A DNA stretch of 64,000 nucleotides from an uncultured Solirubrobacteraceae bacterium (GCA_964588985.1 CAZPQW010000001.1:160001-224000); one strand, 5' to 3'; shown: positions 11,039 through 54,511, counted from the first letter of the stretch. Program-made: numbers and translations. Notes: generated from the sequence alone by a model not told the origin.

Positions 11039-11044
11039 TCGTGC

Positions 11045-19036: not shown

Positions 19037-20200
19037 ATGGCCAGCTCGCACGCCGAACAGCAACTCATCCTGCTCAGCGCCGGCACGGCTGCCAGACGGC
19101 GGGCGATGGGAGAGCGCGCCGAGCGGCTGGTGGCGGACGTGGACTGGCCACGACTCGCCGAGACGCTGCGCCTTCGCAGGCTGCTCCCCACACTCGGTCC
19201 ACGCATCGTCGAGCTCGCGCAGGGACGTGCGAGTGACGATTTCGGCGCGACGGTGGAGCAGGCGATAACGGCAGGGCGTCGGCACGGAGCCTTCCTGCAA
19301 CTCGTATCCCTGCGCGCCATCGCCATGCTCGCCGACGCGGGGATTCGCTCGGTCGCACTGAAGGGGCCGCTCTTGGGCGAGGCCATATACGGCGATCCCG
19401 GACGGCGTCCCTCCAGCGACATAGATCTGCTGGTCGCACCGGAGCAGCTGCAGGCGGCGGTGGAGGTGATACGCCGGCTCGACTACGGTGCGCCGACCGA
19501 TTACGTGGACGACCGTGGTCTGCCCCTGCTGCACCTGATGCTTGTCCACGAGCGGGAAGAGCTGCCACCGGTCGAGCTCCACTGGCGCGTGCACTGGTAT
19601 GAGGAGAGCTTCGCGCGCGAGCGGCTGCTGCCGGCTGCCGTGGAGCCCCTGGGCCGCTGGCGCCCCGCGCCTGCCGACGAGCTGACCGGCCTGCTGCTGT
19701 TCTACGCGAGGGATGGCTTCGTCGACCTGCGCTTGGCGAGCGACCTGAGCGCCTGGTGGGACATCCATGGCGCCGACCTGCCCTCCGGCGCGCTCCAGGA
19801 GCAACTGCGCGCCTATCCGGCGCTTGCGCGCGTGATCCCGGCTGCGGCCAGGGTGGCCGAGAAGACGGTGGGCCTGCCGGCGGCGCAGATCATCGGGGGC
19901 ATTCCGAGGCTGGGTGTCCGCCAACGCATGGCTGTGCGGCTCGCGAATCCCAATCCGCACTCGAGCCGATCGCAGCTCTTCGCCGACATCGGCCTGATCG
20001 ACGGGCTGTTGATGCCACATGGTGACTTCGGTGCGTTCGTGCGGCGCCAGGTGCTGCCTCCACCCGAGGTCTTGGATCAGCACGCGCGGCACGCCGCGAG
20101 ACGACGAGCCAGAACGCCCCTGGGCCGCGGCGCGGGCGTGCTGGGGCGGTATGGGCTGACCATGACTCGACTGCTGCGCGCCCCCGAAACGCTGCGCTGA
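19037..20200 (+). CDS. Uncharacterised nucleotidyltransferase family protein (NTP_transf_5-like, lasso-cluster type)
   Basis: ALKGP, RPSSDIDLLV and VELHWR motifs. Confidence 0.85.
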   Translation: MASSHAEQQLILLSAGTAARRRAMGERAERLVADVDWPRLAETLRLRRLLPTLGPRIVELAQGRASDDFGATVEQAITAGRRHGAFLQLVSLRAIAMLADAGIRSVALKGPLLGEAIYGDPGRRPSSDIDLLVAPEQLQAAVEVIRRLDYGAPTDYVDDRGLPLLHLMLVHEREELPPVELHWRVHWYEESFARERLLPAAVEPLGRWRPAPADELTGLLLFYARDGFVDLRLASDLSAWWDIHGADLPSGALQEQLRAYPALARVIPAAARVAEKTVGLPAAQIIGGIPRLGVRQRMAVRLANPNPHSSRSQLFADIGLIDGLLMPHGDFGAFVRRQVLPPPEVLDQHARHAARRRARTPLGRGAGVLGRYGLTMTRLLRAPETLR

Positions 20201-20203
20201 GGC

Positions 20204-21244
20204 TCACTGCGCCGAGCGTCGACTCCCGTCGAGCGCCGCCGCCGAGTACAGCTTTCGTAGGCGAGCGTCGATGGTCTCGACGCTTCGCGTCTCCAGGCAG
20301 AACCGCCGGCCGCGTTCGCCCATGGTCCGCGCGAGCTCGGGGTCGGCCAACAGGTCCGTGAGGCGGTCGGCGAGGCCGATCTCGTCATCGACCGGGACGA
20401 GCACACCGCCTCCCTCGCCGGCGAGCTCGGGGATGCCTCCAACCGGTGTGCTCACGAACGGCCGTCCCAGGCTCATCGCCTCCGCCAGGACCATCGGCAT
20501 TCCCTCCGCGCGCGAGGGCAGAGCCACGACCCGGGCGCGTCGCAGGATCTCCTTCATCTCCGCCGGATCGGCCGGCGGGCGCACCACGAGGCGCTCCGTG
20601 TCGGGAGGCGCGAAGTCGCCTGCTGGGCCTGCCATCAGGCAGCTTGCTTCGGGGCGTCTTTGCGCTACCAGCTGCCATGCGCGAAGCAACACGTCGGCGC
20701 CCTTGCGCAGGCCGATCTCGCCGGCGAATACGACGAGCTCGTCGGTCTGGTCCGCGGGCAGGAAGCTGTCGTCGACGAACACGGGATTGGGCACGATCTC
20801 GGAGTGAACGTCGGGCGCGCGGCGTCTGACCACATCGAGCACTTCCTGGTCCAGGCAGGTCACGAGGTCGGCGCGTCTCAAGACAGCGGAGACGAGTCGT
20901 GGGTGCTTGCTCGCGAAGGGTACGAATGACGCACCGTGAATCGTGGCGACCGTGACGAGCCCTCTCCTGTCTGCCAGTGCGACCAGTGCCCCCTCTCGGA
21001 GGAAGGAGCCTCTCTCTGAGAGATGTATGTGGGCCACCTGGCCGGCGGGCATCCGCAACAGCGCCCGAGCCGAAGCGGCGAAGAGACGAGTTGTGGCCAG
21101 GAGCGACCGCGGGCTCCAAGTCGCATGGAAGTCGACGATGTCGCCTCCGATCCCGTGCTCGGTGAGCACCCGGATCACGGTGGCCATGCCGCCGACGGTG
21201 GCCGGATCCGGCCCGAAGTGACGAACGACCAAGCCGCGTGTCAC
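20204..21244 (-). CDS. Glycosyltransferase family 4
   Basis: GGMATV, RKGADVLL, PSRAEGMPMVLAEAM, VGGIPE. GTGA overlap with the upstream stop. Confidence 0.9.
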   Translation of the reverse strand: MTRGLVVRHFGPDPATVGGMATVIRVLTEHGIGGDIVDFHATWSPRSLLATTRLFAASARALLRMPAGQVAHIHLSERGSFLREGALVALADRRGLVTVATIHGASFVPFASKHPRLVSAVLRRADLVTCLDQEVLDVVRRRAPDVHSEIVPNPVFVDDSFLPADQTDELVVFAGEIGLRKGADVLLRAWQLVAQRRPEASCLMAGPAGDFAPPDTERLVVRPPADPAEMKEILRRARVVALPSRAEGMPMVLAEAMSLGRPFVSTPVGGIPELAGEGGGVLVPVDDEIGLADRLTDLLADPELARTMGERGRRFCLETRSVETIDARLRKLYSAAALDGSRRSAQ

Positions 21245-22542
21245 ACGGCTCGCGGGATCGGCGCTCGCTTTGTCGCGATGCCAGGCAAGCTCAGGGCGGC
21301 AACGACGATCAGCGCGGCCGCGTAGCACGTGGGGCTGTTGAGAAGCGTGTTGTCCGCGAGTGAGTTCACGAGACAACCGGCGATGACGGCGAGTCCAAGC
21401 GCCGGTGCGTTGAGCGTGCCCGCACCCAATGTGCCGTCGATCTTTCGCATGCGGAAGAAGCGAAGGATCAGCATTGTCAGGCTCGCGAGCAGGATCATCA
21501 GACCGACGACGCCGGTCTCGACGAGGTATCGCAGATATTCGTTGTGGGGCAGGAGATAGTTCAGCCGATTCTTGGCGGTGCTTTCGGTGGTGGTCGTCGT
21601 GCCAAGTCCTCGGCCCACGACGGGGGATTTTTCCCACTCCGGTAGGAGTGTCTTCCACCTATACAGACGCGTGTCGAGCGAGCTGGTTGTTTCCCCGCGA
21701 TCGGCGGCCGCGAGGCTTGTCGACGACTCGCCCGCGACGCGCTGGGAGCCGAGTGGCGTCGCGAAGAACACCAGGACGACGGCCGCCGCGATCGCGCAGG
21801 GCACGAGCTTGACTCGGAAGGAACCGGTGTGCAGCGCGCCAAATGTGACCAGCATCGCGGCCAGGGTCAGCAGGCCGTCGATGCTGAAAGTCGCGACCAG
21901 AGCTGCTGCGAACAGTGTCACGAGAAGCGCGTCGGATCGCCGTTTCCCGCTGTCGAGGTACAGCCAGAGCGAGGCTGTGGCCGCGATCGCAAAGAACATC
22001 GCCGCGCTGTTCGGATGTGCAAACGTTCCGTTTGCCCGGATGTTGTTCGCGACGAGCTTGCCTGTGTGCGTCGCGAGCTGGTAGAGGGCGAGGATCGCGG
22101 GAGCGAAGCCGATGAGCTGAACCAGACGAGCGGCGGTGGGAACGTTCACTGCGCCACGTGCGTTGTACACGATCACCGCAAGCGCGAGGACCGAAACCTC
22201 GCGCACACCCTCGCGAAGCGTCTCGGTCGATGCGCCGCTGGTGTTCAGCGCTATGGCTGTCCATACACACAGCCACACCCCAGCCACGACCGTGGGCACC
22301 ATGCCGCGGCGACGGCGCAGCAGCAGACCCACCGCCAGGAGGATGAACAGCACGGCGATCACTCCCGACAGGTTGAGACTGCCGGAGTGACGGCTGTCCG
22401 GCGCGGAGCGGTCGTCGTTCAGCACGCGCACGAACAGCATCGCGCCGAGAAATGGCACCAGCAGGAGGTTGAGACCGCCCGCCAAGCCGAGCCCACGACG
22501 CCACGTGGACAGACTGGTTCGCTGTGATGGCCAAGCGCTCAT
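21241..22542 (-). CDS. O-antigen ligase / Wzy_C family membrane protein
   Basis: Multiple TM helices; RANGTFAHPN, R...W, GRGLG, PHNEYLRYLVETGVVG. Confidence 0.88.
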   Translation of the reverse strand: MSAWPSQRTSLSTWRRGLGLAGGLNLLLVPFLGAMLFVRVLNDDRSAPDSRHSGSLNLSGVIAVLFILLAVGLLLRRRRGMVPTVVAGVWLCVWTAIALNTSGASTETLREGVREVSVLALAVIVYNARGAVNVPTAARLVQLIGFAPAILALYQLATHTGKLVANNIRANGTFAHPNSAAMFFAIAATASLWLYLDSGKRRSDALLVTLFAAALVATFSIDGLLTLAAMLVTFGALHTGSFRVKLVPCAIAAAVVLVFFATPLGSQRVAGESSTSLAAADRGETTSSLDTRLYRWKTLLPEWEKSPVVGRGLGTTTTTESTAKNRLNYLLPHNEYLRYLVETGVVGLMILLASLTMLILRFFRMRKIDGTLGAGTLNAPALGLAVIAGCLVNSLADNTLLNSPTCYAAALIVVAALSLPGIATKRAPIPRAV

Positions 22543-22620
22543 CCGGGCACCTCTGCTTCTTCGGGCCACCGGCAAAAGGCCCCCTCTAGACATATACGAG
22601 GTCGGGTAGTCTACAGGTCA

Positions 22621-23403
22621 GTGGCTCCCGTCAACCGTGTCAAGGAACGACTAGAGGCAGGCGAAACCGTGTTTGGCACGTGGCTTCAGACCGCGTCGCT
22701 CACCGTGGCCAACATCCTTGCCCACAGCGGGATGGATTTCGTGACAGTGGACATGGAGCACGGTCCCGCCAGCTTCTCGGAGGCCGAGGCGATCATGTAC
22801 GCGGTGGAGGCGGGGGGCAGCACGCCCATGATTCGCCTCGGCGACGGAAGCGCCCCGAATATTCTGAAGGCTTGCGATGTTGGGTGTCAGGGCATTCTCG
22901 TCGCCCACGTGCAGACCGCGGATGAGGCCGCGGACATCGTTCGCGCGATGCGGTTCGCGCCTGAGGGGGAGCGAGGCATGGCCCCGTTCACCCGCTTGCA
23001 CGACTGGTCCGCCGAAGATCTCGCACGGAAGTTGGCTGACGCCAACCGCTGGCAGCTGGCGGGCATTCTGGTTGAGGATCGGGTCGGCCTCGAGAACCTC
23101 GACGACATACTCGCGGTCGACGGGCTCGACCTCGTCTACCTCGGTATCTACGACATATCGCAGGCCGTCGGCCTTCCTGGGCAGGTCGATCACCCCGCGG
23201 TGCTGGAGACCGTGTCGTCGGCCGTGAGCCGTATCAACGACGCGGGCAAGGCGGCGGGGGCGGTAGCGCGTGACGCCGACCATCTCAGATGGCTCCTGAA
23301 AACCGGATTTCGCTATATCTCCTATCTCTGCGACACCGCGCTGATCACGCAGCGGGCGCGAGCTGTGAGAGCCGACTTCGAGGAGATCGTGCGCAATGGC
23401 TGA
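22621..23403 (+). CDS. HpcH/HpaI class II pyruvate aldolase
   Basis: DFVTVDMEHG, RFAPEGERG, LVED, GIYDIS. TAGTCT -10-like element at 22607-22612. Confidence 0.9.
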   Translation: MAPVNRVKERLEAGETVFGTWLQTASLTVANILAHSGMDFVTVDMEHGPASFSEAEAIMYAVEAGGSTPMIRLGDGSAPNILKACDVGCQGILVAHVQTADEAADIVRAMRFAPEGERGMAPFTRLHDWSAEDLARKLADANRWQLAGILVEDRVGLENLDDILAVDGLDLVYLGIYDISQAVGLPGQVDHPAVLETVSSAVSRINDAGKAAGAVARDADHLRWLLKTGFRYISYLCDTALITQRARAVRADFEEIVRNG

Positions 23404-24457
23404 TTCGAGCGAAATCCTTCGCGTGGGCGTGGCCGGCTATGGAAGCACCGGGCAGATACGGCGAAAGCACATCGACGCCCATCCACGCATGCAGACCGTT
23501 GCCGTGTGCGATCGCACCGTGGCCACGGCGGGTGAGACGGTGGATGGCGTGCGGATGTGGACCAATTGGGAGCAGCTCCTGGAGGAGGAGCTGGACGTGC
23601 TGTTCGTGTGCCTCTGGAACGACATCGCTCCGACGGTGGTGATGGAAGGCCTCAAACGCGGTCTGCACGTTTTCTGCGAGAAGCCACCCGGTCGCACGAT
23701 CGAGGATGTCATCAGGGTTCGCGAGGTGGAGCAGGCCCATCCTCAGCTCAAGCTCAAGTACGGGTTCAATCACCGTTACCACCAGTCGGTGCGCGACGCT
23801 CTCAAGATCATCCAGAGCGGCGATCTCGGCGCTGTGGTGGATCTACGTGGCGTGTACGGAAAGTCGAAGATGATCCGCTTCGATCAGGATTGGCGGACGA
23901 AGCGAGAGATCGCCGGTGGGGGGATCCTCCTCGATCAGGGGATTCACATGGTCGACATGATGCGCCTGTTCGCCGGTGAATTCGTGGATATTCACTCCCA
24001 CATCTCCAATGCCTTCTGGTGTCATGACGTCGAGGACAACGCGTATGCGCTGATGCGCACCGCGGATGGAATCGTCGCCATGTTGCACTCGTCGGCCACC
24101 CAGTGGCGGCACCGCTTTGGGCTCGACATCACCCTCAAGGAGGGCGGGCTCTCGCTCTCGGGGATCCTGTCCTCGTCCAGGAGCTACGGCGCTGAGACCC
24201 TCACCGTGGTTTACAGGGGCAACGACGATCTCGGCGATCCCCGTGAAGTGACGACCCGCTACAACGAGGACCAGTCTTGGCACGACGAGATCGAGGAGTT
24301 CGCACGGGCGATCATCGCCAACCGCGAGATCCGCCACGGGTCCTCGCTGGAGGCTCTCAAGACCATGCAATTGGTGTACGACATATACGCCGCGGACCGA
24401 GACTGGGCGGCCCGCTGGCTGGAACCCGCGGAGGCGCTGCCGGGGGGAGCGCGGTGA
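23396..24457 (+). CDS. Gfo/Idh/MocA family oxidoreductase
   Basis: GVAGYG, HVFCEKP, GFNHRY, GGGILLDQGIH. Confidence 0.92.
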   Translation: MADSSEILRVGVAGYGSTGQIRRKHIDAHPRMQTVAVCDRTVATAGETVDGVRMWTNWEQLLEEELDVLFVCLWNDIAPTVVMEGLKRGLHVFCEKPPGRTIEDVIRVREVEQAHPQLKLKYGFNHRYHQSVRDALKIIQSGDLGAVVDLRGVYGKSKMIRFDQDWRTKREIAGGGILLDQGIHMVDMMRLFAGEFVDIHSHISNAFWCHDVEDNAYALMRTADGIVAMLHSSATQWRHRFGLDITLKEGGLSLSGILSSSRSYGAETLTVVYRGNDDLGDPREVTTRYNEDQSWHDEIEEFARAIIANREIRHGSSLEALKTMQLVYDIYAADRDWAARWLEPAEALPGGAR

Positions 24458-25068
24458 ACAACGTCGAGCGGCTCTTTCACGAGCATCCGGAGGCGGTTGA
24501 CTTCGCCGACGGTTATCTGAGCTATCTGAGCCACGTGTTCGCGCGGATCGATCGCGACGCGATCGCGGCGTTCATCGATGTGCTGGAGCGCGCGCGCACC
24601 TCGGGTGGGACCGTCTTCTTCTGCGGGAACGGCGGCTCGGCGGCTACCGCGAGCCATTTCCAGAACGACCTCACACGGTGGCGCACGAACCCGATGAGGG
24701 TCGTGAGCTTGACCGACAACGTGGCCGTCATCACCGCCCTCGGGAACGACTACGGCTACGAGCGCATCTTCGTGATGCAGCTCGAGCCGCTGCTCACCGA
24801 GGGCGACGTCGTCGTGGCGATCTCCGCGTCGGGCAACTCGCCCAACGTCGTGCAGGCGATCGAGTTCGCCAACGAGCGCAATGCCACGACAGTTGGACTC
24901 ACAGGTTTCGACGGAGGCCGGCTCGGCGAGCTCTGCGGCATCCACGTCCACGTACCGTCGGCGCGAGGAGAGTACGGGCCGGTCGAGGACGCGCACATGG
25001 TGCTGGACCATCTCGTCATGTCCTATCTGTGGGAGAAGTGGGCGCGCGAGGGCAAGGACGACACGTGA
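24454..25068 (+). CDS. SIS-domain sugar-phosphate isomerase (GmhA-like)
   Basis: CGNGGSAA, ALGNDYGY, ISASGNSPN, EDAH. GTGA overlap. Confidence 0.9.
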   Translation: MNNVERLFHEHPEAVDFADGYLSYLSHVFARIDRDAIAAFIDVLERARTSGGTVFFCGNGGSAATASHFQNDLTRWRTNPMRVVSLTDNVAVITALGNDYGYERIFVMQLEPLLTEGDVVVAISASGNSPNVVQAIEFANERNATTVGLTGFDGGRLGELCGIHVHVPSARGEYGPVEDAHMVLDHLVMSYLWEKWAREGKDDT

Positions 25069-26015
25069 GCGAGCGGGACCCCACGCCCGTGGCGGTCACC
25101 TCCCGCTCCTTCTCCCGCAACGAGGTTCTCCGAGCTGAGACGCTCGCGCGCTACGAGCGGGTCAAGTTCAACGACGAGGGCCTTTCGCTCGACGGAGACT
25201 CCCTGGTCGACTTTCTCGCCGGCCACCCGCTGGCGATCACCGCCCTGGAGAAGATCGACGACGAAGTCCTCGAGCGCCTCCCGGACCTCGAGGCGATCTC
25301 GAAGGTGGGAGTGGGGATCGACATGATCGACCTCGAGGCGATGGAGCGTCACGGCGTGCGCCTCGCCTGGTCGCGCGGAACCAATTCGCGTTCGGTATCC
25401 GAGTTGGCGCTCTCGTTCATGCTCGCGCTTCTGAGACATCTGCCGTCCGTCACGAAACTGGCGCGTCGGGGAGAGTGGCGCCAGGTTCAGGGCAACACGC
25501 TCACCGGTCGAACAGTGGGCATCGTTGGCTTTGGGCATGTGGGACGCGACCTTGCCGGCCTGCTGTCCGCCTTCTCCTGCCGGGTGCTCGCATATGACGT
25601 CGCGGCGCTCGCGGACCTCCCCGCCCACGTCGAGCAGTCGAGCCTGGAGTCGCTCCTGGCCGACAGCGAGATCGTGACGCTGCACACGGTGCTCAGCGAG
25701 GACACGCGGAACCTCCTCGACCGGGAGCGGATCGACTCGATGCGTTCGGGTGCGCTGGTGATCAACACATCGCGGGGGGGCTTGGTCGACGAGGAGGCGC
25801 TCTACGACGCGCTGTCTTCGGGGCATCTGGCCGGCGCCGCGCTGGACGTGTTCTCGAGTGAGCCGCCCGGGGATCATCCTCTGCTCGGCCTCGATCAGGT
25901 GATCGTCACTCCTCACATCGGTGGGAGCACCGCAGAGGCGGTTCTGGCGATGGGCAGGGCCGCGATCATGGGGCTGGCCGAGGCGACTCCCGTCCGGGAG
26001 TTGAGCGGCGGCTGA
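25065..26015 (+). CDS. D-isomer-specific 2-hydroxyacid dehydrogenase (PGDH-like, no ACT domain)
   Basis: GVGIDMID, GIVGFGHVG, INTSRG, ALDVF, TPHIGG. GTGA overlap. Confidence 0.92.
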   Translation: MSERDPTPVAVTSRSFSRNEVLRAETLARYERVKFNDEGLSLDGDSLVDFLAGHPLAITALEKIDDEVLERLPDLEAISKVGVGIDMIDLEAMERHGVRLAWSRGTNSRSVSELALSFMLALLRHLPSVTKLARRGEWRQVQGNTLTGRTVGIVGFGHVGRDLAGLLSAFSCRVLAYDVAALADLPAHVEQSSLESLLADSEIVTLHTVLSEDTRNLLDRERIDSMRSGALVINTSRGGLVDEEALYDALSSGHLAGAALDVFSSEPPGDHPLLGLDQVIVTPHIGGSTAEAVLAMGRAAIMGLAEATPVRELSGG

Positions 26016-26097
26016 TCGATCGGGAGAGTCGGGGGTTAGACGCACGCGGCAACTCAGGGGGTATCGTTCGCGTTCCAATGAGCCGAACTTCCCAGCG

Positions 26098-26832: not shown

Positions 26833-26853
26833 GTCTCACCCACCACGTCAGCC

Positions 26854-27579: not shown

Positions 27580-27621
27580 GAAGGAAGGATATCCGCGACC
27601 GCGCTATGCGATGATGGGGGT

Positions 27622-45285: not shown

Positions 45286-45330
45286 CTACTCATCAGCGGA
45301 CTTGTCTCCATGAGCAGAGGTCATTAAAGC

Positions 45331-45370: not shown

Positions 45371-45396
45371 CAAGGTCTATCCGTCCAGCTCGCAGC

Positions 45397-45549: not shown

Positions 45550-45641
45550 GAGCTTCCTTCCTTAGGTAGGTAAGAGGGGGAATGATAGGGACGCTCCCGT
45601 GGAGCGCAAGACCCGAAAAAGTACCGGGTCCGAATTTGCTC

Positions 45642-47465
45642 CTATCCGCGACGCGCAGCCCCTTCGAGCAGTTCGCACGGATACTCCGGGCGCTCGAGCG
45701 CCCGGAGCCACGCGTCGGCCAGGCCGACGTGCCACAGTCGGCGAGCGGCCCGACTGTCGCGAGGATTCGAACCTTCCCGCAAGAGCTGCTCCAGGGTCTC
45801 GGCTCGGACGAACGCGCGCACCGGCGCATCGTCGCGGGCTGGGCCGTCGGCGAGCAGGGTTCCGTCGGCTGCGAGCCCGGCGGGCAGCAGCGCGGTGAAG
45901 AAGCTCTTCGCGTGGCGGGTGCGTATCGCCTCGGGGATGTGGCCGGCGAGCGCGTCGCGCAGCAGCGCGCGGTCGCGAACCGGGTCGAACTGCATCTGAG
46001 GGGGAGTGGAGAGCACCGTGCGCAGCAGATCGACGTCGAACTGGAAGGGATGGCGTCCATCGACCCGCTCGTCGATCGCCTCGCGGCGAAAGTGGGCCGA
46101 CACGCCGAGTTTCTCGCCCGCCTCGGTCAGGTCCTCCGCCAGCGATCGCCACCACACAGGGCCGTCGAGCCGTGTTCCCCGCTGGTCGTCCACAAGCTCG
46201 AGGAGGGCCGATGCGTCGGTGGGCAGCAGCAGCGATCCCGGCGAGCCGGCGGCTCTCGGGCGCCGTTTCAGGCCCGCGGGCACCAGGCGGCGGACGCCGT
46301 ACACGCGAAGCGCTCGTAGGCGCATGCGCACGTCCGCCTCGGCCCCGACTTCCGGGATGCGCCGGGTGAGCCTCCAGGCCGCGAGCGCCCTCCCGCCGCG
46401 CAGCATGTCGGCGATCAGATAGGGCGCGAATCCGAACAGCTCATCGCCTCCCTCGCCGTCGAGCATAACGTCCACGCCGAGCCGGCGGGCGCTCGCCAGC
46501 AGCGGCTTCCACACGAACAGGTTCGGCGTGGCCGGCGGAAGCTTCCAGCGATCGATGTGCTCGAGCGCCGGCGCCAGGATCGAGGCTCGATCGTCGAAGG
46601 GAACCAGCTCGACGGGCATGCCGGTGTGACGCGCCGTCGCCTCGATCAAATCCCGCTCGTCGGTCTCGGGGTGGGTGGGGAAGATCGCGCCGAGCGCGAG
46701 CGCTCGACTCACGGAGCCCTTCCGCGCCGCGAGCCCCGCCGCCACGCAGGCCGAGTCGAGGCCGCCGCTGAGACGCACCGCGGGCTGGTGCGCTCCCTGG
46801 GCCGCTCGCTGCACCGCGTCAAACGCCGCGGTGCGCAGACGTTCGGCCGCCTCCTCCCGCGATCCGGAGACGACGCCCTCGTAACAGGGGCGCCAGTAGG
46901 GCTCGATCGTCATCCCGTCCACGGCGAGTAGGACCCTGTGTGCCGGTGGGATGCGCGCGATGCCCTCGAACATGCTGCGCCCGGCGGGGACGCTGCCGCG
47001 CTCGATCCACTGCGCCAGCGCCAGACGATCGGGTCCGGGGGCGCTCGGCAGCAGATCCACGATGACGCGCTCGTGTTCTGCGAACAGAGCTCCGCCGCCC
47101 ATGCGAGCCTGCACCAGCGGCCGGCCGCCGAGCTGGTCGCGCACGATCGTCGCGACCCCGCGTTCGCCGTCGTAGGTCACCACGACGAACTCCCCGCGAA
47201 GGAGCTCGCAGGCGCCTGGGCCGAGCCGCGCGTGCGCTCGAGCGATCACAGCGGGCACCCCCGCGGTGGGGGGCAGGCCGAACCGGTCGCGCAGCGCGTC
47301 CGCGTTGCTCAGCCGTCCGGAGATCCAGCAGCGCCAGCTTCCGTCGACGTCGCCCTCGGCGCCCACGACCGCCAGCTGCCCGACGCGCTCGGGCGTATCG
47401 CCGGCACGCCTCGCGCCAAGCTCGAGCAGCTCGACCGATCGCTCGCCCCACGCTGCCGCGAACAT
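45642..47465 (-). CDS. Lasso peptide cyclase (asparagine synthetase-like, C protein)
   Basis: RDQLG, LSGGLDS, DGEGGDELFG; lacks the N-terminal catalytic Cys of true AsnB. Confidence 0.9.
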   Translation of the reverse strand: MFAAAWGERSVELLELGARRAGDTPERVGQLAVVGAEGDVDGSWRCWISGRLSNADALRDRFGLPPTAGVPAVIARAHARLGPGACELLRGEFVVVTYDGERGVATIVRDQLGGRPLVQARMGGGALFAEHERVIVDLLPSAPGPDRLALAQWIERGSVPAGRSMFEGIARIPPAHRVLLAVDGMTIEPYWRPCYEGVVSGSREEAAERLRTAAFDAVQRAAQGAHQPAVRLSGGLDSACVAAGLAARKGSVSRALALGAIFPTHPETDERDLIEATARHTGMPVELVPFDDRASILAPALEHIDRWKLPPATPNLFVWKPLLASARRLGVDVMLDGEGGDELFGFAPYLIADMLRGGRALAAWRLTRRIPEVGAEADVRMRLRALRVYGVRRLVPAGLKRRPRAAGSPGSLLLPTDASALLELVDDQRGTRLDGPVWWRSLAEDLTEAGEKLGVSAHFRREAIDERVDGRHPFQFDVDLLRTVLSTPPQMQFDPVRDRALLRDALAGHIPEAIRTRHAKSFFTALLPAGLAADGTLLADGPARDDAPVRAFVRAETLEQLLREGSNPRDSRAARRLWHVGLADAWLRALERPEYPCELLEGAARRG

Positions 47466-47469
47466 CGAT

Positions 47470-48504
47470 TCAGAGTTCCAGCGTGTGCTCGATGAGATTG
47501 TCGGCCAGCTGCGTGGCGTTCACGTCGGGCTGGACGCGCAGGCGGTAGATCCGCTCCGTGGCGGCAAGGGCGACCGCCAGGTCGAGATGGCGGACGAGGC
47601 GCTCGGGTGTGCGCACGGACAGGTTGAAGGTGCTCGCGAGCAGCGCGAAGGGGTCGACCGCGTCGATGCGCTCGACGAGAGGGCCATCCGCGGAGCGCTC
47701 CAGCAGGAACAGCTCGCCGAATGGCGCCGGCGACGCGTTCAGGCTGGGGCTGTAGCGCTGCTTGCCGAGGAAGCTCGTGGCGGGGCCGAGGGCCGTGCGC
47801 TCCCGCGTCGAGAGACGATCGTGCTCGGCGGCGCGCAGTTGCAGCAGGGCCGCGCCCGGATGGGCCAGCAGCTCGGGGCCGCACTGCTCGAGCGCCACCG
47901 TGTCGTCGCTCAGCAGCGTCGCTCCGTGGCGCAGCAGGGCCGCCGCCAGCGAGGACTTGCCGGCCCCGGGCGGACCCGTGAACAGCGCCGCCCTGCCTCG
48001 CAGCACCACGCCCGAGGCGTGCAGCACCTCGAACCCCCTCAGGGTCGCCGCAAGCGGCAGGGCCTGGGCGGTGAGGAGGGCGGTCCACTCCGAGCTTCCA
48101 TCCTCCGGGTCGCAGATCACCTCGGTCCCGTCCAGGGCGATAAGGATCCGCGCGAATCCCGGCGCATGCAGGAGGTAGCCGGCGGGAGGAGCGAAATCGA
48201 CGGTGAGCAGTACCGCGTCCCCGTCGCGCAGCTCGCGCACGCGTCCGGCCGCGTGCGCGGCGACGCTCCAGCGTCGCGAGAGCTCTCGCGGATCGAGCCT
48301 CACACGCGTCGATGGCCGCGAGTCGCAAGGAGAGGCCGGGTGCCCAGGGGCGGGAGCGTCCGGGTCGCGGGCGCCGTTAGCATCGAGCTGAGCGATGCCG
48401 GGGATATCGATGCTGGGGTCGACTTCGAGTCGAAGGCCAAACGCGGCGCCGTGGGCCGCTTGCTCGCGGACCGGGCTGTCGGGCGCCTCAGGCTCGATCT
48501 GCAT
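47470..48504 (-). CDS. HPr kinase-like P-loop kinase (lasso peptide kinase family) 1
   Basis: VLHAS, GPPGAGKSS, LLSDD. Confidence 0.85.
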   Translation of the reverse strand: MQIEPEAPDSPVREQAAHGAAFGLRLEVDPSIDIPGIAQLDANGARDPDAPAPGHPASPCDSRPSTRVRLDPRELSRRWSVAAHAAGRVRELRDGDAVLLTVDFAPPAGYLLHAPGFARILIALDGTEVICDPEDGSSEWTALLTAQALPLAATLRGFEVLHASGVVLRGRAALFTGPPGAGKSSLAAALLRHGATLLSDDTVALEQCGPELLAHPGAALLQLRAAEHDRLSTRERTALGPATSFLGKQRYSPSLNASPAPFGELFLLERSADGPLVERIDAVDPFALLASTFNLSVRTPERLVRHLDLAVALAATERIYRLRVQPDVNATQLADNLIEHTLEL

Positions 48505-48826
48505 CCACCGTCTCGATCAGCCCGCGCTCGAGCAGCCCACGGGTGAGGGCGAGCAGATCGCTCTGGATCTGCTTCTGCTCGAGGCCGTACTCGCCGGCGA
48601 GCACAGGCGCCGCGTCACCGATCGTGGACGCCGCCTCGAGCGCCTCGAGCATCCTGCCCGCGGTGGGGTTCAGTCCGTGGTATCTGCCCGTCCTGAGGTT
48701 GAGGACGACCGTCTCCGAGACGAAGCTGCGATGGACGACGTGCTGGGGCAGCCGCGCTCGCGCTTGCAGGAGCTGTTGGTCGGAAAGCTGGGACATGGTC
48801 GTGGTATCGACGTTTTTGTCGGTCAT
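48488..48826 (-). CDS. PqqD-family RiPP recognition element (lasso B1/E)
   Basis: ETVVLNLRTGRYHGLNPTA...L..EY...D...L...LLERGLI. Confidence 0.92.
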   Translation of the reverse strand: MTDKNVDTTTMSQLSDQQLLQARARLPQHVVHRSFVSETVVLNLRTGRYHGLNPTAGRMLEALEAASTIGDAAPVLAGEYGLEQKQIQSDLLALTRGLLERGLIETVDADRA

Positions 48827-48827
48827 C

Positions 48828-49637
48828 TCAATACTCGGCAATCGTTCCGGAGCGTTGACCGTAGCGAATCGATGCGCGCAGCAGCATGAGGCCGGCGGGT
48901 AGCAACACGGCGCAGAAGCCCACCAGCTTGAGCAGCTCCACCCCCGCGGGGTGAACCAGCGGTGTGTCGATCAGCAGGTGGCGCAGCAGATCGGTCGCCG
49001 GTGTGAACGGCTGCACGTCGGACGCCCAGCGAATCCACCCCGGCAGCACGGCGGTCGGGAAGTACAGTCCGCCGACGATCGCAACGCCGGCGACGATGAA
49101 CTGGGTCGCGCTGGATGCCTGCTTGAACGCCATCACCAGCGCCACGAGGAAGAACGCGAACGGCATGAATGCGAGCGTGCCGAGCAGCGCCACCGGAATC
49201 GCGAGCACCGCTGTGCTCGCCAGGGGAAGCCCGAATATCACCGCGGCCAGTGTGAGCATCAGGATGCCGCTGAAGAACGCGTTGATGAGGGGAAACAGCA
49301 TCGTGCCGAGTATCCCGTTGATCGGCCCGTGGGCACTCACGAGGAAACGCTCGATCGTGCCCGAGATGAGTTCCTGTCGCACCGTCACCGGCATCACGCC
49401 CATGGATATGGTGAGGATCTGGACGATCACCAGGCCCACGATCACGAACCCGAAATAGCCGCCCGGAGAGTGAATGCTCCTGGCGGTGACGAGATGGCTG
49501 ATGTAGTAGAAGAGGGTGATCGAGAACAGCGGGCCGAGGAACTGCGCGACGAGCTGGCTGCGGTAGCTGGCGAACAGGATCGCGTCGCGGCGGATGATCC
49601 CCCACATGGCTTCGCACCACAGGGCCACAGGACTCAT
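48828..49637 (-). CDS. ABC-2 type exporter permease
   Basis: About 6 TM segments; E..SGTIE, GLYFP..VLPGW..P.T. ATGA overlap. Confidence 0.88.
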   Translation of the reverse strand: MSPVALWCEAMWGIIRRDAILFASYRSQLVAQFLGPLFSITLFYYISHLVTARSIHSPGGYFGFVIVGLVIVQILTISMGVMPVTVRQELISGTIERFLVSAHGPINGILGTMLFPLINAFFSGILMLTLAAVIFGLPLASTAVLAIPVALLGTLAFMPFAFFLVALVMAFKQASSATQFIVAGVAIVGGLYFPTAVLPGWIRWASDVQPFTPATDLLRHLLIDTPLVHPAGVELLKLVGFCAVLLPAGLMLLRASIRYGQRSGTIAEY

Positions 49638-50371
49638 TGGATTTGCTCCAGGCAGCCCTCGGTGAGGGTGTAGCTGGCGTCGCACGCGATCACGCGATCC
49701 TCGCCTCGCGGCGAGCACCACAGCACCGTCGAGCCGCGGCTCGACGCCCGCGCGATCTGCTCGTTGAGCAGCCGGTAGCCATCGTCGTCGAGCGAGTTGC
49801 GCGGCTCGTCGAGCAACACCACCCGAGGTTCGTGCAGGAACGCCATCGCCAGCCGGATGCGCTGGCGCTGGCCCATCGACATGCGGTCCACGCGGCGTGT
49901 GGCGAACTCCATAAGTCCGAATCGTTGCAGACTGTCGGCAACCAGCTCGGCGCGTCGCTCGCGGGGCACATAGGCCAGCCGGCCCCAGTAGTCGAGCTGC
50001 TGAGAGACGCGCATGCGCGCCTGTAGGCCACGGTCGCCCGCCGACAGAAAGCCGATCTGGCGTCGGTAGAGGCCCCCCCTCGATGCCGGCGTGAGCTCGC
50101 CGATGCGTACGGTCCCTCGCTGTGGCAGCAGGATCCCGGCGGCGAGCCGCAGCAGTGTGGTCTTGCCGACGCCGTTGCGACCGCCGACCCACGTGACCTC
50201 GCCCGCGCGCAGGGTCAGGCTGACGTCGTCCAGCACCGGCGGCTTGGGGCCCTTCCACCGGTGGTGCAGACCCTCGAGCTCGAGGATCGGCTCGCCCGCG
50301 CCGGCGGCGGGCGGCGGATCGGAAAACGGGGCTGACACCGAGGAAGCGGACATCGAAGGAGAGCTTTTCAC
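49634..50371 (-). CDS. ABC transporter ATP-binding subunit
   Basis: GRNGVGKT, MSMGQRQR, LLDEP. Confidence 0.9.
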   Translation of the reverse strand: MKSSPSMSASSVSAPFSDPPPAAGAGEPILELEGLHHRWKGPKPPVLDDVSLTLRAGEVTWVGGRNGVGKTTLLRLAAGILLPQRGTVRIGELTPASRGGLYRRQIGFLSAGDRGLQARMRVSQQLDYWGRLAYVPRERRAELVADSLQRFGLMEFATRRVDRMSMGQRQRIRLAMAFLHEPRVVLLDEPRNSLDDDGYRLLNEQIARASSRGSTVLWCSPRGEDRVIACDASYTLTEGCLEQIQ

Positions 50372-51339
50372 AGCTCAGCCGCCAGGAGCGTGTCTGCGAG
50401 GACGCTAGGGGGGGTGTCGAGGTTGGCCGACAGTCGCCACAGCTCCACGCTCGAGGCGATCGTGCTCGCGAGCTCGAACCGCGCTCGCTCGCGCTCGGGG
50501 AGGCGGGGGAAGCGCAGCAGCGAGTCCAGCAGCGGGCCCAGCTGGCTCTCGATCCTCTCCAGCGACGGCAGCGCCCCGGCCCCCTGCGATTCGGGCCGTC
50601 GGTCGAGCACGACCAGCGCCTTCAGCGGCAGCGGCTCGGGGTGCACTGGAACCGCGATCCAGCGCTCGTCGCCGATCGAGAGGATCGTCGCTCGGGGGTC
50701 GGCGTCATCACGCGCGCGAATCCCATCGGCGGGGACGGTCATCAGCGGGGGAGCAGGATGGGCGAGAGGGGCCTGGGCTCCACGGGGCTCCAGCACGAGC
50801 ACGTCGTCCGCCATCAGCGCCAGCCCGCGCCCGAGGAGCTCCGCGAGCAGGGTGCTCTTGCCGCCGCCGGTCGCCGCGGCGATCGCGATCGCGCCGTCAG
50901 GTGTGGCGATCGCGCCCGCGTGCAGCGCCTCATAGCCCCGCAGCAGCGCGACCGTGAACAGCGCCGAGTCGAGCACCACCCGCCACCACGAGGGATCGGC
51001 GGGGTCCGACGGTGCGCACCGCAGCACGCTCGCGTCGGCCCGGAGGTGGTGGACCGCTCGGGTCTGCGCCGACGGGACGCCGCTGGGATCAGGTGGCGCG
51101 CCGTGCACGAAGCGATGATCCCCCTCGGCTCCTCGCTCCACCACGAATGGGGCGCCGTCGATCTCGCCCGCCCAGCCGACCGCCTCGAAGCCGGACCAGC
51201 TCTCCTGGATGGCCTGGGGGGTGACGGACAGGAGCCGCAGTTCGGGCTCCTCGCGCAGGGGTCGTGCCTGCCACGCGCCCGGGGGGGGCGCATCGCTTCG
51301 TAGGCTGAGGCCGAACGCGGCCAGGCCCGGCTGGGGCAC
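50368..51339 (-). CDS. HPr kinase-like P-loop kinase 2 (start uncertain)
   Basis: ALHAG, ATGGGKST, LMADD; N-terminal AFGL segment as in kinase 1. Confidence 0.83.
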   Translation of the reverse strand: MPQPGLAAFGLSLRSDAPPPGAWQARPLREEPELRLLSVTPQAIQESWSGFEAVGWAGEIDGAPFVVERGAEGDHRFVHGAPPDPSGVPSAQTRAVHHLRADASVLRCAPSDPADPSWWRVVLDSALFTVALLRGYEALHAGAIATPDGAIAIAAATGGGKSTLLAELLGRGLALMADDVLVLEPRGAQAPLAHPAPPLMTVPADGIRARDDADPRATILSIGDERWIAVPVHPEPLPLKALVVLDRRPESQGAGALPSLERIESQLGPLLDSLLRFPRLPERERARFELASTIASSVELWRLSANLDTPPSVLADTLLAAEL

Positions 51340-51347
51340 TGCGTGCG

Positions 51348-51824
51348 TCAGAGCTCGACCAGTCGGCCGAAGGACTCCGTGCCGGGGTCCAGCACCGCGA
51401 TTCCGTCGTGCTCGACCCACGCGTGCGCGAGGAACTCCGGATCCGCCTGCGCTCCGATCACCAGCTTCGCCTCTATGCCGCGCCTGGCGAGCAGACGTGT
51501 CAGCACGAGCGAGCGGGCCAGGCAGCGGGTGTCTCCGGGGACGTGCGCGAGCAGACGCGTCACCGCATGACCGAGACGGTAGGCCTCCGCGAGCGAGTTC
51601 GTGGCCGAAGGCGCGGTCGACGGCGATCGCGAGCGCAGGGCGGCCACAACGTCGGCGATCGGGGCGCGGCGCAGCGTGCGTCGCGCCTGCACGTATGCCG
51701 CGAGTATCTCGATCGCGAGTCGCGCGCGGGCCGGGTGGCTCAGGCGCTTTGGGCGTGCGCTGCGGGCTGCTGCGATCGTCGGGACCGCAGCAGCGCAGCG
51801 AGGCTCAGGGCTTGGGACTGCCAT
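51348..51824 (-). CDS. Lasso peptide B2 leader peptidase (transglutaminase-like)
   Basis: TRCLARSL (catalytic Cys), LVIG, AHAWVE. Confidence 0.92.
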   Translation of the reverse strand: MAVPSPEPRCAAAVPTIAAARSARPKRLSHPARARLAIEILAAYVQARRTLRRAPIADVVAALRSRSPSTAPSATNSLAEAYRLGHAVTRLLAHVPGDTRCLARSLVLTRLLARRGIEAKLVIGAQADPEFLAHAWVEHDGIAVLDPGTESFGRLVEL

Positions 51825-51842
51825 CGGCGGCCCTGTGACGCG

Positions 51843-52688
51843 TCAGCCGAGTTTCTTGGGGTGCGATTTTTTGGCTTTCTTCGCGCACGTGTGGTAAGAG
51901 CGGGTGGCCGACAGATGGTGCCCGAGGACCGTCGTCGCCGCGATCTTGATCGTGAACTTGCCAAGCGGGAAGCCCTTGAGGTTGATCGTCGCGACGATGT
52001 AGTTGCCCTTGCGCGCCGTCCTGATTTTTTTGCCCTTGATCGATACGAGCACCTTCTTGAAGGGGTCGTATTTCGGGTCGAGCAGGTGGATGCGGAAGAG
52101 CCTCGCGCTCAGGCACTTCTTGCTGCTCGGCAGCGACAGAGTCTCTTTCAGGCCGGCGGTGCCGGAGTTCCCGGTGGGCAGGGGAGCGATCAGAGCGGAG
52201 CTCGTGCAGCCATAGCTGGCGCCGACGCCCGGGCTGCCGGACGGGATGCTCGGCGTTCCGGTACCGGGGCGGCTCAGGCATACGCGCAGGTAGCGCGACC
52301 CGCTGGCTTCTTCGACCACTCGCCACGCCGTGGGTCCGACGAACGTCGGGTCTTCAGTGCAGTCTTCTCCGGATGTCGTGCTTTTGAACCACTGGTGGGA
52401 GCCTAGGTAGGAGCCGTCCGGTTGGAGGGTGATTTCTTTCCAGATCTTCTGTCCGGCGGGGTGGGTGCAGGTCGCGAACTTTGTCGGCGAGACGACGACG
52501 CCTTCGAACTTCCCGTTGCCTTCCGGCTGGATGGCGATCTGGCCGCCGTTGAAGGACCAGATCCCTTCGATGTTCGTCGTCGCAGCTGTGGCTACGCCGG
52601 CGGTGAGCAGGAGGATGGTCGCGGCGATCGCCAGTAGCAGCGATGAGCGGCGCCTTGTGCGTGTGGGAGTGTTCTGAGTTCTAGGCAT
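51843..52688 (-). CDS. Secreted hypothetical protein with Lys-rich C-terminal domain
   Basis: Signal peptide RRRSSLLLAIAATILLLTAGVATA; several Cys; C-terminus ...RSYHTCAKKAKK. Confidence 0.8.
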   Translation of the reverse strand: MPRTQNTPTRTRRRSSLLLAIAATILLLTAGVATAATTNIEGIWSFNGGQIAIQPEGNGKFEGVVVSPTKFATCTHPAGQKIWKEITLQPDGSYLGSHQWFKSTTSGEDCTEDPTFVGPTAWRVVEEASGSRYLRVCLSRPGTGTPSIPSGSPGVGASYGCTSSALIAPLPTGNSGTAGLKETLSLPSSKKCLSARLFRIHLLDPKYDPFKKVLVSIKGKKIRTARKGNYIVATINLKGFPLGKFTIKIAATTVLGHHLSATRSYHTCAKKAKKSHPKKLG

Positions 52689-52774
52689 TGCTCTATCAAC
52701 GCGGGGCCGATTCGATTCTTCCACGCATCCGAGTGGGGGCTCGGGGCCGCTCGCTTGTATGCTCGGTTCGACGC

Positions 52775-53530
52775 ATGCGCAACTGCATCATCCTCGGCTC
52801 GGGCCGTAGCGGGACGAGCATGCTCGCGGGCATGTTGCACGGCGCCGGGTATTACATGGGCGACCAGCTGCTCGAGCCCACGCCCGCAAACCCGAAGGGC
52901 TATTTCGAGAGCCAGGAGGTCAACCTCCTCAACGACGAGCTCATCGCGTCCATTGTGCCCGTCAGGCCGCGAGTGCCGCTCGGATGCCTGTTCCCCTGGC
53001 GACTGCCGGCTGGCCTGCTGTGGTTGGCGAGCATCGACGCCGACGTGCAGATACGTCCGAGCCCCGAGCAGCTGAGTCGCATCCGCGGGCTCGTCGCCAA
53101 AGAGCCGTTCTGCTTCAAGGATCCCCGCTTCTGCTACACGTTGGACGCATGGCGTCTCGCGTCGGAGGACGTCGTCTTCCTGTGTGTGTTTCGAGAGCCG
53201 GGCCGCACGGCGACGAGCATGAGGCAGGACGTTCGCGACAGGCCCTACCGCGGTTTCTACCTGACCAGAGCCCGTGCGCTACGGGTGTGGACGTCAATGT
53301 ACGAGCACGTGCTCCAATCATCAGGACAAGACGGAAGATGGCTGTTTGTCCACTATGATCAGATCCTCGACGGCAGCGCGATGGCTCGCATCGAAAGCGC
53401 TGTTGAGGCCGGGGTCAGCAGCAGCTCGATCGATCCCAGCCTGAAGCGCTCTCGCGACGACTCAAGCCATCTGCCACAACGTACGATCCAGGTGTATCAG
53501 CGACTGTGCGAGCTTGCCGGAGCGAACTGA
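52775..53530 (+). CDS. Sulfotransferase family protein
   Basis: GSGRSGTS, NPKGYFE, FKDPRF, FREP. Confidence 0.88.
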   Translation: MRNCIILGSGRSGTSMLAGMLHGAGYYMGDQLLEPTPANPKGYFESQEVNLLNDELIASIVPVRPRVPLGCLFPWRLPAGLLWLASIDADVQIRPSPEQLSRIRGLVAKEPFCFKDPRFCYTLDAWRLASEDVVFLCVFREPGRTATSMRQDVRDRPYRGFYLTRARALRVWTSMYEHVLQSSGQDGRWLFVHYDQILDGSAMARIESAVEAGVSSSSIDPSLKRSRDDSSHLPQRTIQVYQRLCELAGAN

Positions 53531-53557
53531 CCCCACATACTGGCGCTTTCGAGGACC

Positions 53558-54511
53558 GTGACCACACAGCAGCAGACAGCAACGACGCTACCGATCTGCG
53601 TCATCATCCCGGTCTACAACCGCGCGCATCTCCTGGAGCGCGCCATCGGGAGCGTCTGGGCACAGAGACCGATGCTTCCGGCGGAGGTCCTCGTGGTGGA
53701 CGACGGATCCGACGACGACACGCCTGAGGTGGCAAAACGGTTCGGGGCCCGGATCGTCAGCCATCCCGAGAACCTGGGTCTGGCGGCCGCACGCAACACC
53801 GGGCTGCGTTCGACGTCGCAGCCGTGGGTGGCGCTCCTGGATTCCGACGACGAGTGGCTGCCCGGCCATCTCGCCCACCTCTGGCGCATACGAGACGACC
53901 ACGCGCTCGTCGCCGGCGCGGCTCTGCGCTGTGGTGTCAACCCCAACGACGACCGGTACCACGGTCCGAGCGGCAAGAAGCCGAAGATCCTCCACTCCGG
54001 CGATCAGCTCGTCGTCCCCGAGAACATCATTCCCGTGAGCGCTTCGATGATCAAGCGCGAGGTCGCCATTGAGGCCGGTGGCTTTCAGGCTCGGCACGGC
54101 GTCACCGAGGATCTGGACCTCTGGCTGCGCGTGCTCGCCAACCACACGGCCATCTGCTCCCCGGAGGTCAGCATCATCTACCACATGCACGGCGAGCAGA
54201 TGTCGTCCGCGCTGTCGCAGATGCTGCTCGGCCACTATGCGGCGGGCGAGGCTCACAGGGTGCGGACCGACGGGTCGCGGATACCGATTCGGCGATGGGA
54301 GGGCGCCTCGGCGTTCTACAACCTGCGCGACGCCCAGCTGTCCGGCGAACTGGGGCGGATGATGCGATGGGGGCTCTACATCCTCGCTAGGCCCTACCGC
54401 CTGAGGGGCTCGCTCGAACTGGTGGCGCAGCGCTACAACGGGATCCGGCGCGCCTCTGCCCTGCGGGCGGCTGGCGTCGGGCCGAATCGCCGTGGGAGCG
54501 AGAGGGCGTGA
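53558..54511 (+). CDS. Glycosyltransferase family 2
   Basis: IIPVYN, VVDDGSDD, AARNTG, LLDSDDEW, EDLDLWLR. Confidence 0.92.
   Translation: MTTQQQTATTLPICVIIPVYNRAHLLERAIGSVWAQRPMLPAEVLVVDDGSDDDTPEVAKRFGARIVSHPENLGLAAARNTGLRSTSQPWVALLDSDDEWLPGHLAHLWRIRDDHALVAGAALRCGVNPNDDRYHGPSGKKPKILHSGDQLVVPENIIPVSASMIKREVAIEAGGFQARHGVTEDLDLWLRVLANHTAICSPEVSIIYHMHGEQMSSALSQMLLGHYAAGEAHRVRTDGSRIPIRRWEGASAFYNLRDAQLSGELGRMMRWGLYILARPYRLRGSLELVAQRYNGIRRASALRAAGVGPNRRGSERA

Follow-up and report, generated by a model that had tools for sequence, protein, structure and literature searches.

Why should the genes for a lasso peptide lie on both sides of a polysaccharide biosynthesis cassette, and do the two systems work together or merely share a neighbourhood? 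The question is raised by a 64,000-nucleotide stretch of DNA from an uncultured Solirubrobacteraceae bacterium (GCA_964588985.1, CAZPQW010000001.1:160001-224000; hereafter the window, with positions counted from its first letter), in which a lasso peptide operon (45397-52724, minus strand) and a PsmN-type nucleotidyltransferase of family PF14907 (NTP_transf_5; 19037-20200, plus strand) enclose a Wzy/Wzc-type glycan cassette of about 24 kb. A reading made from the DNA alone (the sequence-only reading) had proposed a phospho-glyco-lasso or peptide-linked glycan system, with the peptide as carrier, primer or anchor of a sulfated glycan or as a signal controlling its synthesis. We find that the conserved linkage of lasso, transferase and glycan genes is real, and we favour, as a moderately probable interpretation, an accessory phospho-(glyco-)lasso module that is split around a hypervariable polysaccharide cassette and probably works with the polymer.

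Genes were called by third-position G+C, and comparison of the 49 open reading frames (ORFs) scanned in the window with Pfam and NCBIfam recovered every gene that the sequence-only reading had named, the second O-antigen-ligase-like protein as a weak match (20.8 bits). The genome (G000; Solirubrobacterales) comprises 3.41 Mb in 48 contigs, and a profile search across all of it returned one B2 lasso protease and one PF14907 transferase (88.7 bits against a cut-off of 31.2), some 31-32 kb apart. The transferase lies 25.2 kb from the lasso precursor gene, in agreement with the distance of about 25 kb noted earlier, and the observation that lasso genes bracket polysaccharide genes is confirmed. 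The cassette between them has a G+C content of 0.62-0.66, compared with 0.72-0.73 in the lasso operon, that is, about 8-10 points lower.

The association extends well beyond this genome. Among 161 genomes of the genus (completeness at least 85%), B2 called above its cut-off is found in 49, and in 44 of these B2 shares its contig with a PF14907 gene at a distance of 0.7-46.5 kb (median 17.7 kb), or in 43 of 48 if the unpublished genome G063 is left out; in the five misses (G001, G076, G124, G160 and G178) B2 lies near a contig end, or the assembly is fragmented or the genes fall on separate contigs. Lasso-bearing genomes are spread over all bands of SdhA identity to the window (14/59, 7/28 and 24/62), and the lasso/transferase/glycan block is intact whether its distance from SdhA is 9 kb, as in G000, or exceeds 700 kb, as in G002 and G022. 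All six relatives mapped with tblastn and Pfam (G002, G004, G009, G022, G030 and G033) share the order lasso operon, LuxR, variable glycan genes, transferase, with the lasso gene set kept and with species-specific cassettes that include genes for Bac_transf, Wzc, Wzy_C, a Wzx-type flippase, aminotransferases and epimerases. The cassette of G002 also carries large serine recombinase and IS3-type transposase genes (L016:13497-15695 and L017:2376-4226).

Viewed from the transferase, the picture is similar. A search with an alignment of six sequences gave 204 relatives, of which we examined the neighbours within 10 kb of the best 80 (58-89% identity, all from the same order): glycan-type genes are present in 80/80 loci, and a phosphoglycosyltransferase (PGT), Wzc, Wzy or flippase gene in 72/80. 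Lasso genes are visible in 17 of these 80 loci, and in 15 of the 17 the glycan genes lie between them and the transferase; in L064 and L093 the transferase abuts the LuxR and lasso genes, with the glycan genes outside. Gene order is thus shuffled while the neighbourhood is retained. Furthermore, in G051, from another family of the order, 40 kb hold genes for a kinase, flippase, transferase, GT4, Wzy_C, sulfotransferase, PGT, WecB, LuxR, ABC-2, RiPP recognition element (RRE; RiPP, a peptide that is ribosomally synthesized and modified post-translationally) and B2, and in G044 and G028, again from other families, a PGT gene stands beside RRE, kinase and transferase genes. In G047 (other family) the lasso genes abut the transferase and no glycan gene is found on the 12-kb contig. 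The comparative test proposed by the sequence-only reading therefore bears out its prediction, the linkage being kept throughout the genus and, within the order, in three further families.

Genomes that lack the peptide genes reveal which parts of the locus belong together. G008, G014 and G032 have neither B2 nor PF14907, yet they encode Wzc orthologues of 54-62% identity, and the Wzc locus of G008 borders on a right flank shared with the window (GFO2 83%, WecB 80%, HdrB 77% and SdhA 91% identical), at a site without lasso genes, transferase and secreted partner. The last of these, a protein encoded beside the transferase, is found within 10 kb of it in 69 of the 80 orthologous loci, and lasso-less genomes contain at best paralogues of 27-31% identity (5/5 searched). 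Homologues of the adjoining GT4 glycosyltransferase (20204-21220) occur in 62/80 transferase loci and those of the adjoining Wzy_C protein (21241-22593) in 43/80; orthologues of the latter (51-67% identity) are present in 22 of the 161 genus genomes, 21 of them lasso-bearing, and G018, the lone lasso-less genome, is assembled in 270 contigs. Judged by their co-absence from lasso-less genomes and by the 21 of 22 for Wzy_C, the transferase, its secreted partner and, in some genomes, the GT4/Wzy_C pair track the lasso genes; this does not hold for Wzc and the cassette.

The peptide itself is encoded by a 50-residue precursor gene, LasA (45397-45549, minus strand; NF033521, 27.9 bits against a cut-off of 19), of sequence MEKDTPTYESPRIEDHGDLAELTAGSHEGESTDAAFPIHTPKKDLTFSTP, in which residues 8-26 match the leader model. 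The leader carries a YxxPxI motif and Thr at position -2, and the 26-residue core has Gly1 and Asp9 and ends in S-T-P. A leader motif scan of the loci examined gathered 22 distinct precursors from the genus, all of which keep Thr at -2 and Asp9 of the core (22/22); the core ends in Pro in 21/22 and has Ser/Thr at -3 in 21/22, and one group contains two Cys. LasA is the sole strict leader match in the whole G000 genome, and a second, linear (LPP-like) precursor was sought there and none was found by the same motif scan, which divergent leaders may escape.

The remaining genes of the operon, all on the minus strand, run from a secreted protein of uncharacterised family (51843-52724), for which a search of the Atlas returned unnamed clusters only, through the transglutaminase-like B2 protease (51348-51824; NF033537, 75.7 bits against a cut-off of 33; PF13471, 77.6 bits), a putative HPr kinase (HprK)-like kinase 1 (50368-51420), an ABC ATPase (49634-50371) and ABC-2 permease (48828 to about 49640; both by Pfam/NCBIfam), the PqqD-type RRE, or B1 (48488-48841; PF05402, 51 bits), and a putative HprK-like kinase 2 (47470-48504; Pfam/NCBIfam and paralogy to kinase 1) to an Asn-synthase-type cyclase (45642-47465). 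The cyclase scores 105.9 bits with PF00733 (cut-off 21) and stays below the cut-offs of the specific NCBIfam cyclase models (107.6 versus 525 and 106.6 versus 300). Two LuxR/GerE-type regulator genes (43900-45285, minus strand; Pfam) follow directly downstream of the precursor gene, and no signal-peptidase family is represented among the 49 ORFs scanned.

Related operons show some variation. G002 (L016) and G022 (L003) have two RRE genes, one with the kinase and cyclase and the other with B2, separated by a reverse-strand gene of uncharacterised function. Short Asn_synthase proteins of 409-462 residues without the N-terminal amidotransferase-like domain, putative cyclases, adjoin PqqD genes in G051 (L011:2686-3915), G044 (L007:2242-3477) and G028 (L009:12186-13574). 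G051 additionally encodes a 151-residue protein (L010:730-1185, equivalent to L110:12730-13185, both minus strand) with a lasso-type leader (YxxPxI...LT-A), a Gly/Ser-rich body and an LPFTG sortase signal of the LPXTG type; its gene is followed by those for an HprK-like kinase and a HEAT-repeat protein and stands beside flippase, PF14907 and GT4 genes, and the product may be anchored in the wall and serve the same machinery as a substrate.

What the kinases and the transferase may do is suggested by pseudomycoidin. PsmK polyphosphorylates the C-terminal Ser of that peptide and PsmN is required for the phosphate to acquire one or two hexoses (PMC6993621; PMC8498205); a PsmN D134A/D136A mutant is inactive, and mutation of the DD pair inactivates PsmK (PMC6993621). 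That PsmN is a PF14907 member we infer from the wording of PMC6993621. Kinases 1 and 2 of the window, paralogues of 30% identity (E 5e-18), both keep a GxGKS P-loop followed by a DD pair, and the D128-x-D130 motif of the transferase is invariant in 9/9 aligned relatives; these match the residues mutated in PsmK and PsmN (PMC6993621). Kinase and transferase together appear to fit the published chemistry of phospho-glycosylation (PMC6993621), which speaks for the phospho-glyco type assigned by the sequence-only reading. The same reading had drawn on the C-terminal Ser acceptor that is the rule in paeninodin and pseudomycoidin (PMC8498205; PMC6993621), and on this point it needs correction, the last residue of the core being Pro. 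In the related kinase LppK the target is Ser3 of the core (PMC13381572), and such kinases are therefore not tied to a C-terminal Ser; as a guess, the phosphate acceptor here may be the conserved Ser/Thr at -3.

PF14907 comprises further subtypes in these bacteria. One, of about 740-790 residues with a long C-terminal extension, occurs in lasso-less genomes, in an operon with two GT2 and sugar epimerase genes; it is exemplified by L020:8667-10895 (minus strand; about 742 residues) in G003, with similar ORFs in G015, G134, G191 and G194. A third subtype has about 330 residues.

Upstream of the window's transferase, an uncharacterised family is represented by two genes whose products are secreted or anchored in the membrane (16499-17929, with a Pro-rich linker, and its paralogue at 17994-19004; both plus strand); they are co-directional with the transferase at gaps of 64 and 32 nt. 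The family is large, with 4591 representatives at E up to 0.001, and includes members fused to immunoglobulin (Ig)-like, PKD, RTX, lectin-like and M23 domains. Searches with the sequence gave nothing useful in the PDB and unnamed clusters only in the Atlas. An AlphaFold2 model built from 40 diverse sequences reached a pLDDT of 94.4 (30 close sequences gave 48.3), and in a wide structural search (VIA) its top six matches were MltA-type lytic transglycosylases, albeit weak ones (Z 3.5-4.5 over 171-189 aligned residues); the best Foldseek matches were to the same MltA family (E 0.25). Because these structural matches are weak, we retain an MltA-like, glycan-cleaving activity as a lead only. Further to the left are an NRPS-like (non-ribosomal peptide synthetase-like) single module (adenylation, carrier and thioesterase; 1357 residues, minus strand) and a TauD/TfdA-family dioxygenase (11770-12891, plus strand), a pair spanning 7793-12891 that also adjoins the secreted-protein genes in several relatives.

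The glycan genes begin directly after the transferase with the GT4 glycosyltransferase (about 20204-21220, minus strand; Pfam; the ORF overruns upstream) and the Wzy_C, O-antigen-ligase-like membrane protein (21241-22593, minus strand; PF04932, 61.4 bits versus 31.7). The variable cassette that follows (22621-38087, mixed strands) encodes an HpcH aldolase, a GFO oxidoreductase, a 2-hydroxyacid dehydrogenase, an FkbM methyltransferase, a CMP-sugar-type cytidylyltransferase, an IMPase/CysQ-like phosphatase, GT2, GT4 and MptE-like proteins and a second Wzy_C-like protein (29175-30743, under the cut-off), and ends in a secreted GH79-like protein (36528-38087). Next come a Wzc chain-length regulator/tyrosine autokinase (38272-39882, plus strand; TIGR01007, 118.8 versus 108) and, on the minus strand, a probable sulfotransferase (39910-40923), which has no Pfam match and is 25% identical (E 3e-6) to the Sulfotransfer_3 protein encoded at 52688-53530, an MsbA/HepA/PglK-like ABC exporter (40788-42650) and a WecG/TagA-family transferase (42878-43840; both by Pfam/NCBIfam). 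The exporter accounts for the flippase of the sequence-only reading: a transporter is indeed present, but it is of the ABC type, and Pfam and NCBIfam give no Wzx-type flippase (Polysacc_synt) in the window locus. On the right flank, beyond the lasso operon, lie the Sulfotransfer_3 gene (28.6 bits versus 27) and a GT2 gene (53558-54511), and the flank as a whole (52688-58465) further encodes a GFO oxidoreductase resembling UDP-GlcNAc 3-dehydrogenase, an Ig-domain surface protein and the UDP-GlcNAc 2-epimerase WecB. WecB and WecG usually provide the ManNAc-GlcNAc-lipid on which a polymer is started.

Part of the cassette recurs elsewhere: by per-gene tblastn, the block at 22621-29156 (HpcH, GFO, 2-hydroxyacid dehydrogenase, a 471-residue cytidylyltransferase whose N-terminal half belongs to no known family, and the IMPase-like protein) is kept as a unit in three other species (L049, L081 and L099) at 51-93% identity, the FkbM gene within it being seen in the window and not in these three loci. 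Judged by its enzymes, the block probably makes a CMP-activated acidic (keto-)sugar. The whole region is flanked by two large surface proteins, one with LVIVD repeats and AIR9-type Ig domains on the left (12961-16311, minus strand) and one with a Big_1-like Ig domain on the right (55738-57426, minus strand).

From these genes, which make up a complete lasso pathway probably of the kinase/nucleotidyltransferase (paeninodin/pseudomycoidin) type, together with the cassette, we infer phosphorylation of the peptide, its site, its glycosylation and a joint function with the polymer, in the following model. The RRE would bind the YxxPxI leader of the 50-residue precursor, B2 would cleave after Thr-Ala, and the cyclase would link Gly1 to Asp9; one or both kinases would then phosphorylate the C-terminal tail ([S/T]-x-Pro) at its conserved Ser/Thr, a sugar would be placed on that phosphate by the PF14907 transferase, and the ABC-2 pump would export the product. 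In parallel, a sulfated heteropolysaccharide would be built on a lipid carrier, through WecB and WecG here and through Bac_transf in relatives. In this genus the cassette for this polymer is bordered on one side by the lasso operon and the LuxR genes and on the other by a second lasso-linked module, consisting of the secreted MltA-like proteins and the transferase, often with GT4 and Wzy_C; the lasso modules would form an add-on to a polysaccharide locus that stands alone in sister species. The peptide would most likely be decorated via the locus, co-expressed with it, and active together with the polymer at the cell surface or in the matrix.

Several observations weigh against this model. The kinase matches fall under curated cut-offs: Hpr_kinase_C gives 27.1 bits versus 33.3, TIGR04352 gives 38.2 and 31.1 versus 200, and kinase 1 matches the latter weakly (E 1.2e-7). 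With its C-terminal Pro the core departs from the acceptor rule of paeninodin, so that the acceptor site proposed here is a guess; the related kinase LppK acts on Ser3 of its core (PMC13381572). Other PF14907 subtypes stand in purely glycan contexts with neither RRE nor kinase, as in G003, and the transferase could accordingly serve the glycan rather than the peptide. The polysaccharide locus exists in G008, G014 and G032 without any lasso genes. Finally, the genomes surveyed are related, the counts thereby overstate independence and the 44 linked cases are not 44 independent events, and both the low G+C of the cassette and the insertion sequence (IS) and recombinase genes of G002 fit a recombination hot spot that could hold neighbours together through descent alone.

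This last point underlies the alternative that survives best, although we regard it as rather unlikely, namely that the two systems are neighbours only: a compact ancestral lasso cluster that included the transferase would have received a cassette in its midst, and the arrangement would persist by descent and cassette swapping around an ordinary antimicrobial or signalling lasso peptide. The solitary Wzc locus at the same site in G008, a cassette that differs from species to species, with IS and recombinase genes inside it in G002, and that is some 8-10 G+C points poorer than the operon, and the direct contact of transferase and lasso genes on the 12-kb contig of G047 would all be expected from such a history. 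Mere adjacency accounts poorly, however, for a linkage that outlasts order shuffling and chromosomal relocation and that recurs in three other families and, independently of our data, in Bacilli (PMC13381572). Nor does it readily explain why the transferase is putatively co-transcribed with secreted proteins resembling glycan enzymes, or why it is paired with a GT4 and Wzy_C that are nearly confined to lasso-bearing genomes (21/22).

If the accessory module does work with the polymer, the two products might even be joined covalently, a distinctly doubtful extension in which the [S/T]-x-Pro tail would receive a lipid-linked glycan en bloc from Wzy_C, or the transferase would make a phosphodiester to a sugar of the growing unit, yielding a lasso-capped glycan. 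The Wzy_C protein at 21241-22593 is kept at 51-67% identity while nearby transferases vary, and occurs in 21 lasso-bearing genomes as opposed to one lasso-less genome; the second, species-specific Wzy_C-like protein (29175-30743) could then be the true polymerase. The motif S-x-P may resemble an O-glycosylation sequon. Searches with the conserved Wzy_C gave no sequence match in the PDB and, as its only NCBIfam match, the O-oligosaccharyltransferase (O-OTase) TfpM (NF058641; E 6.9e-6), at 25.4 bits against a cut-off of 600; with the score so far under the cut-off, we lower the claim of O-OTase membership, though not that of a possible ligase-like action. The orthologue is moreover found in only 21 of the 49 lasso-bearing genomes, and the Wzy and GT4 pair could equally polymerise a conserved backbone. 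Precedent for a sugar on the phosphate comes from the hexose of pseudomycoidin (PMC6993621), and the LPXTG wall protein of G051, with the same leader and beside kinase and transferase genes, would suit such a scheme. In its boldest form the lasso peptide would be a dedicated glycan acceptor, its phosphorylated tail joined to the variable unit via the transferase or Wzy_C, which strikes us as improbable; if true, a sulfated glycan would bear as its cap or handle a knotted peptide that proteases cannot cleave, with a sortase-anchored wall protein decorated likewise in a sister family.

More doubtful still is a regulatory signal, in which the exported peptide would be sensed via the two LuxR regulators and would tune the polysaccharide genes. 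A LuxR homologue follows the lasso operon in 6/6 mapped relatives as well as directly after the precursor gene in the window, and the genes from the operon through both LuxR genes to WecG/TagA, the ABC exporter and the sulfotransferase are co-directional at gaps of at most 227 nt. A consensus scan of the minus strand from 39800 to 53000, with patterns that may not suit this organism, gave no terminator-like site and likewise no promoter-like site. The N-terminal halves of the LuxR proteins, on the other hand, match no ligand-binding family in Pfam or NCBIfam. Natural-product clusters often contain LuxR regulators of their own, which as a rule act on that cluster alone, and this also counts against a signal to the polymer genes. 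The signal idea in the sequence-only reading draws only on the conserved LuxR genes; its carrier, primer or anchor role is not supported, and the peptide as polymer primer is rejected, given that the Wzc locus occupies the same site without the lasso module in a sister species and hence needs no peptide primer, that relatives carry Bac_transf in their cassettes, that the window locus contains WecB and WecG and no initiating transferase (the five Bac_transf and two PF00953 genes of the genome all lie outside the window), and that no Ser stands at the C-terminus to act as acceptor.

The locus bears on a question that is open in the literature, the role of phosphorylated and phosphoglycosylated lasso peptides (PMC13381572). 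It extends the coupling seen in Bacilli to a distant phylum, where a large, uncultured genus from soil keeps it despite gene shuffling and relocation, and it defines an accessory set (transferase, secreted MltA-like protein, GT4 and Wzy_C) that tracks the peptide genes rather than the polysaccharide genes. With this set, a vague co-localisation becomes a series of testable hypotheses as to which enzymes act on the peptide and on which residue. If the peptide is attached to the glycan machinery or undergoes maturation by it, a glycoconjugate of a new kind would result, and with it a way to lasso scaffolds with engineered glycans.

Comparison with known systems places the locus between several of them. 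A literature search joining lasso peptide, exopolysaccharide and HPr kinase returned no paper, and one on lasso peptides in Thermoleophilia nothing relevant among the papers listed. The pseudomycoidin cluster of Bacillus pseudomycoides (psmCAKB1B2ND) resembles it in the split B1/B2, the Asn-synthase-type cyclase and, the kinases being putative here, the HprK-like kinase with P-loop and DD pair (PMC6993621; PMC8498205), as well as in the DxD nucleotidyltransferase, in a leader with YxxPx[ILV] and Thr at -2, and in carrying a sulfotransferase gene at its margin (PMC6993621). In contrast to that cluster, the operon studied here has two putative kinases rather than one and a two-gene ABC-2 pump inside it, its core ends in [S/T]-x-Pro instead of Ser and would form a nine-residue Gly1-Asp9 ring, and its transferase lies 25-31 kb away across the cassette, together with the secreted-protein genes, in an actinobacterial host (Solirubrobacterales). 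In the davasins, a Ser of the lasso peptide is glycosylated iteratively by the cluster-linked glycosyltransferase IgtG (PMC11912497); there a single dedicated enzyme acts directly on the Ser of the mature peptide, and a kinase, a nucleotidyltransferase and polysaccharide export are not reported in the accessible part of that paper (PMC11912497). Capsule and O-antigen loci of the Wzx/Wzy type share with the window Wzc, Wzy_C, many GT2 and GT4 genes, sugar-modifying enzymes, a low G+C content and a variable centre between kept flanks; they differ in that the window locus has no Wzx and no initiating transferase, and in that its conserved flanks are RiPP genes.

The closest parallel is found in Bacilli, where clusters for paeninodin-like lasso peptides and LPPs are embedded in capsular polysaccharide loci (PMC13381572, Nat Commun 2026), so that an association of lasso and capsule genes as such is already published; the roles of these clusters are stated there to be unknown, and a role in biofilms is offered as speculation (PMC13381572). 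Those loci likewise combine kinase and NTP-transferase RiPP genes with a tyrosine autokinase, many glycosyltransferases and an MsbA-like transporter, and their two-RRE feature recurs in our relatives G002 and G022 (PMC13381572). LPP clusters have a SipW-type leader peptidase and no cyclase (PMC13381572), whereas the window has both a cyclase and B2; none of its scanned ORFs encodes a SipW-type signal peptidase, and the motif scan of the genome gave no second, linear precursor. Moreover, the lasso genes are arranged here in two modules that bracket the cassette. Relative to the published cases in Bacilli, what is new is thus the occurrence in another phylum, the split architecture, the two kinases, the different acceptor motif and a defined set of accessory genes (PMC13381572).

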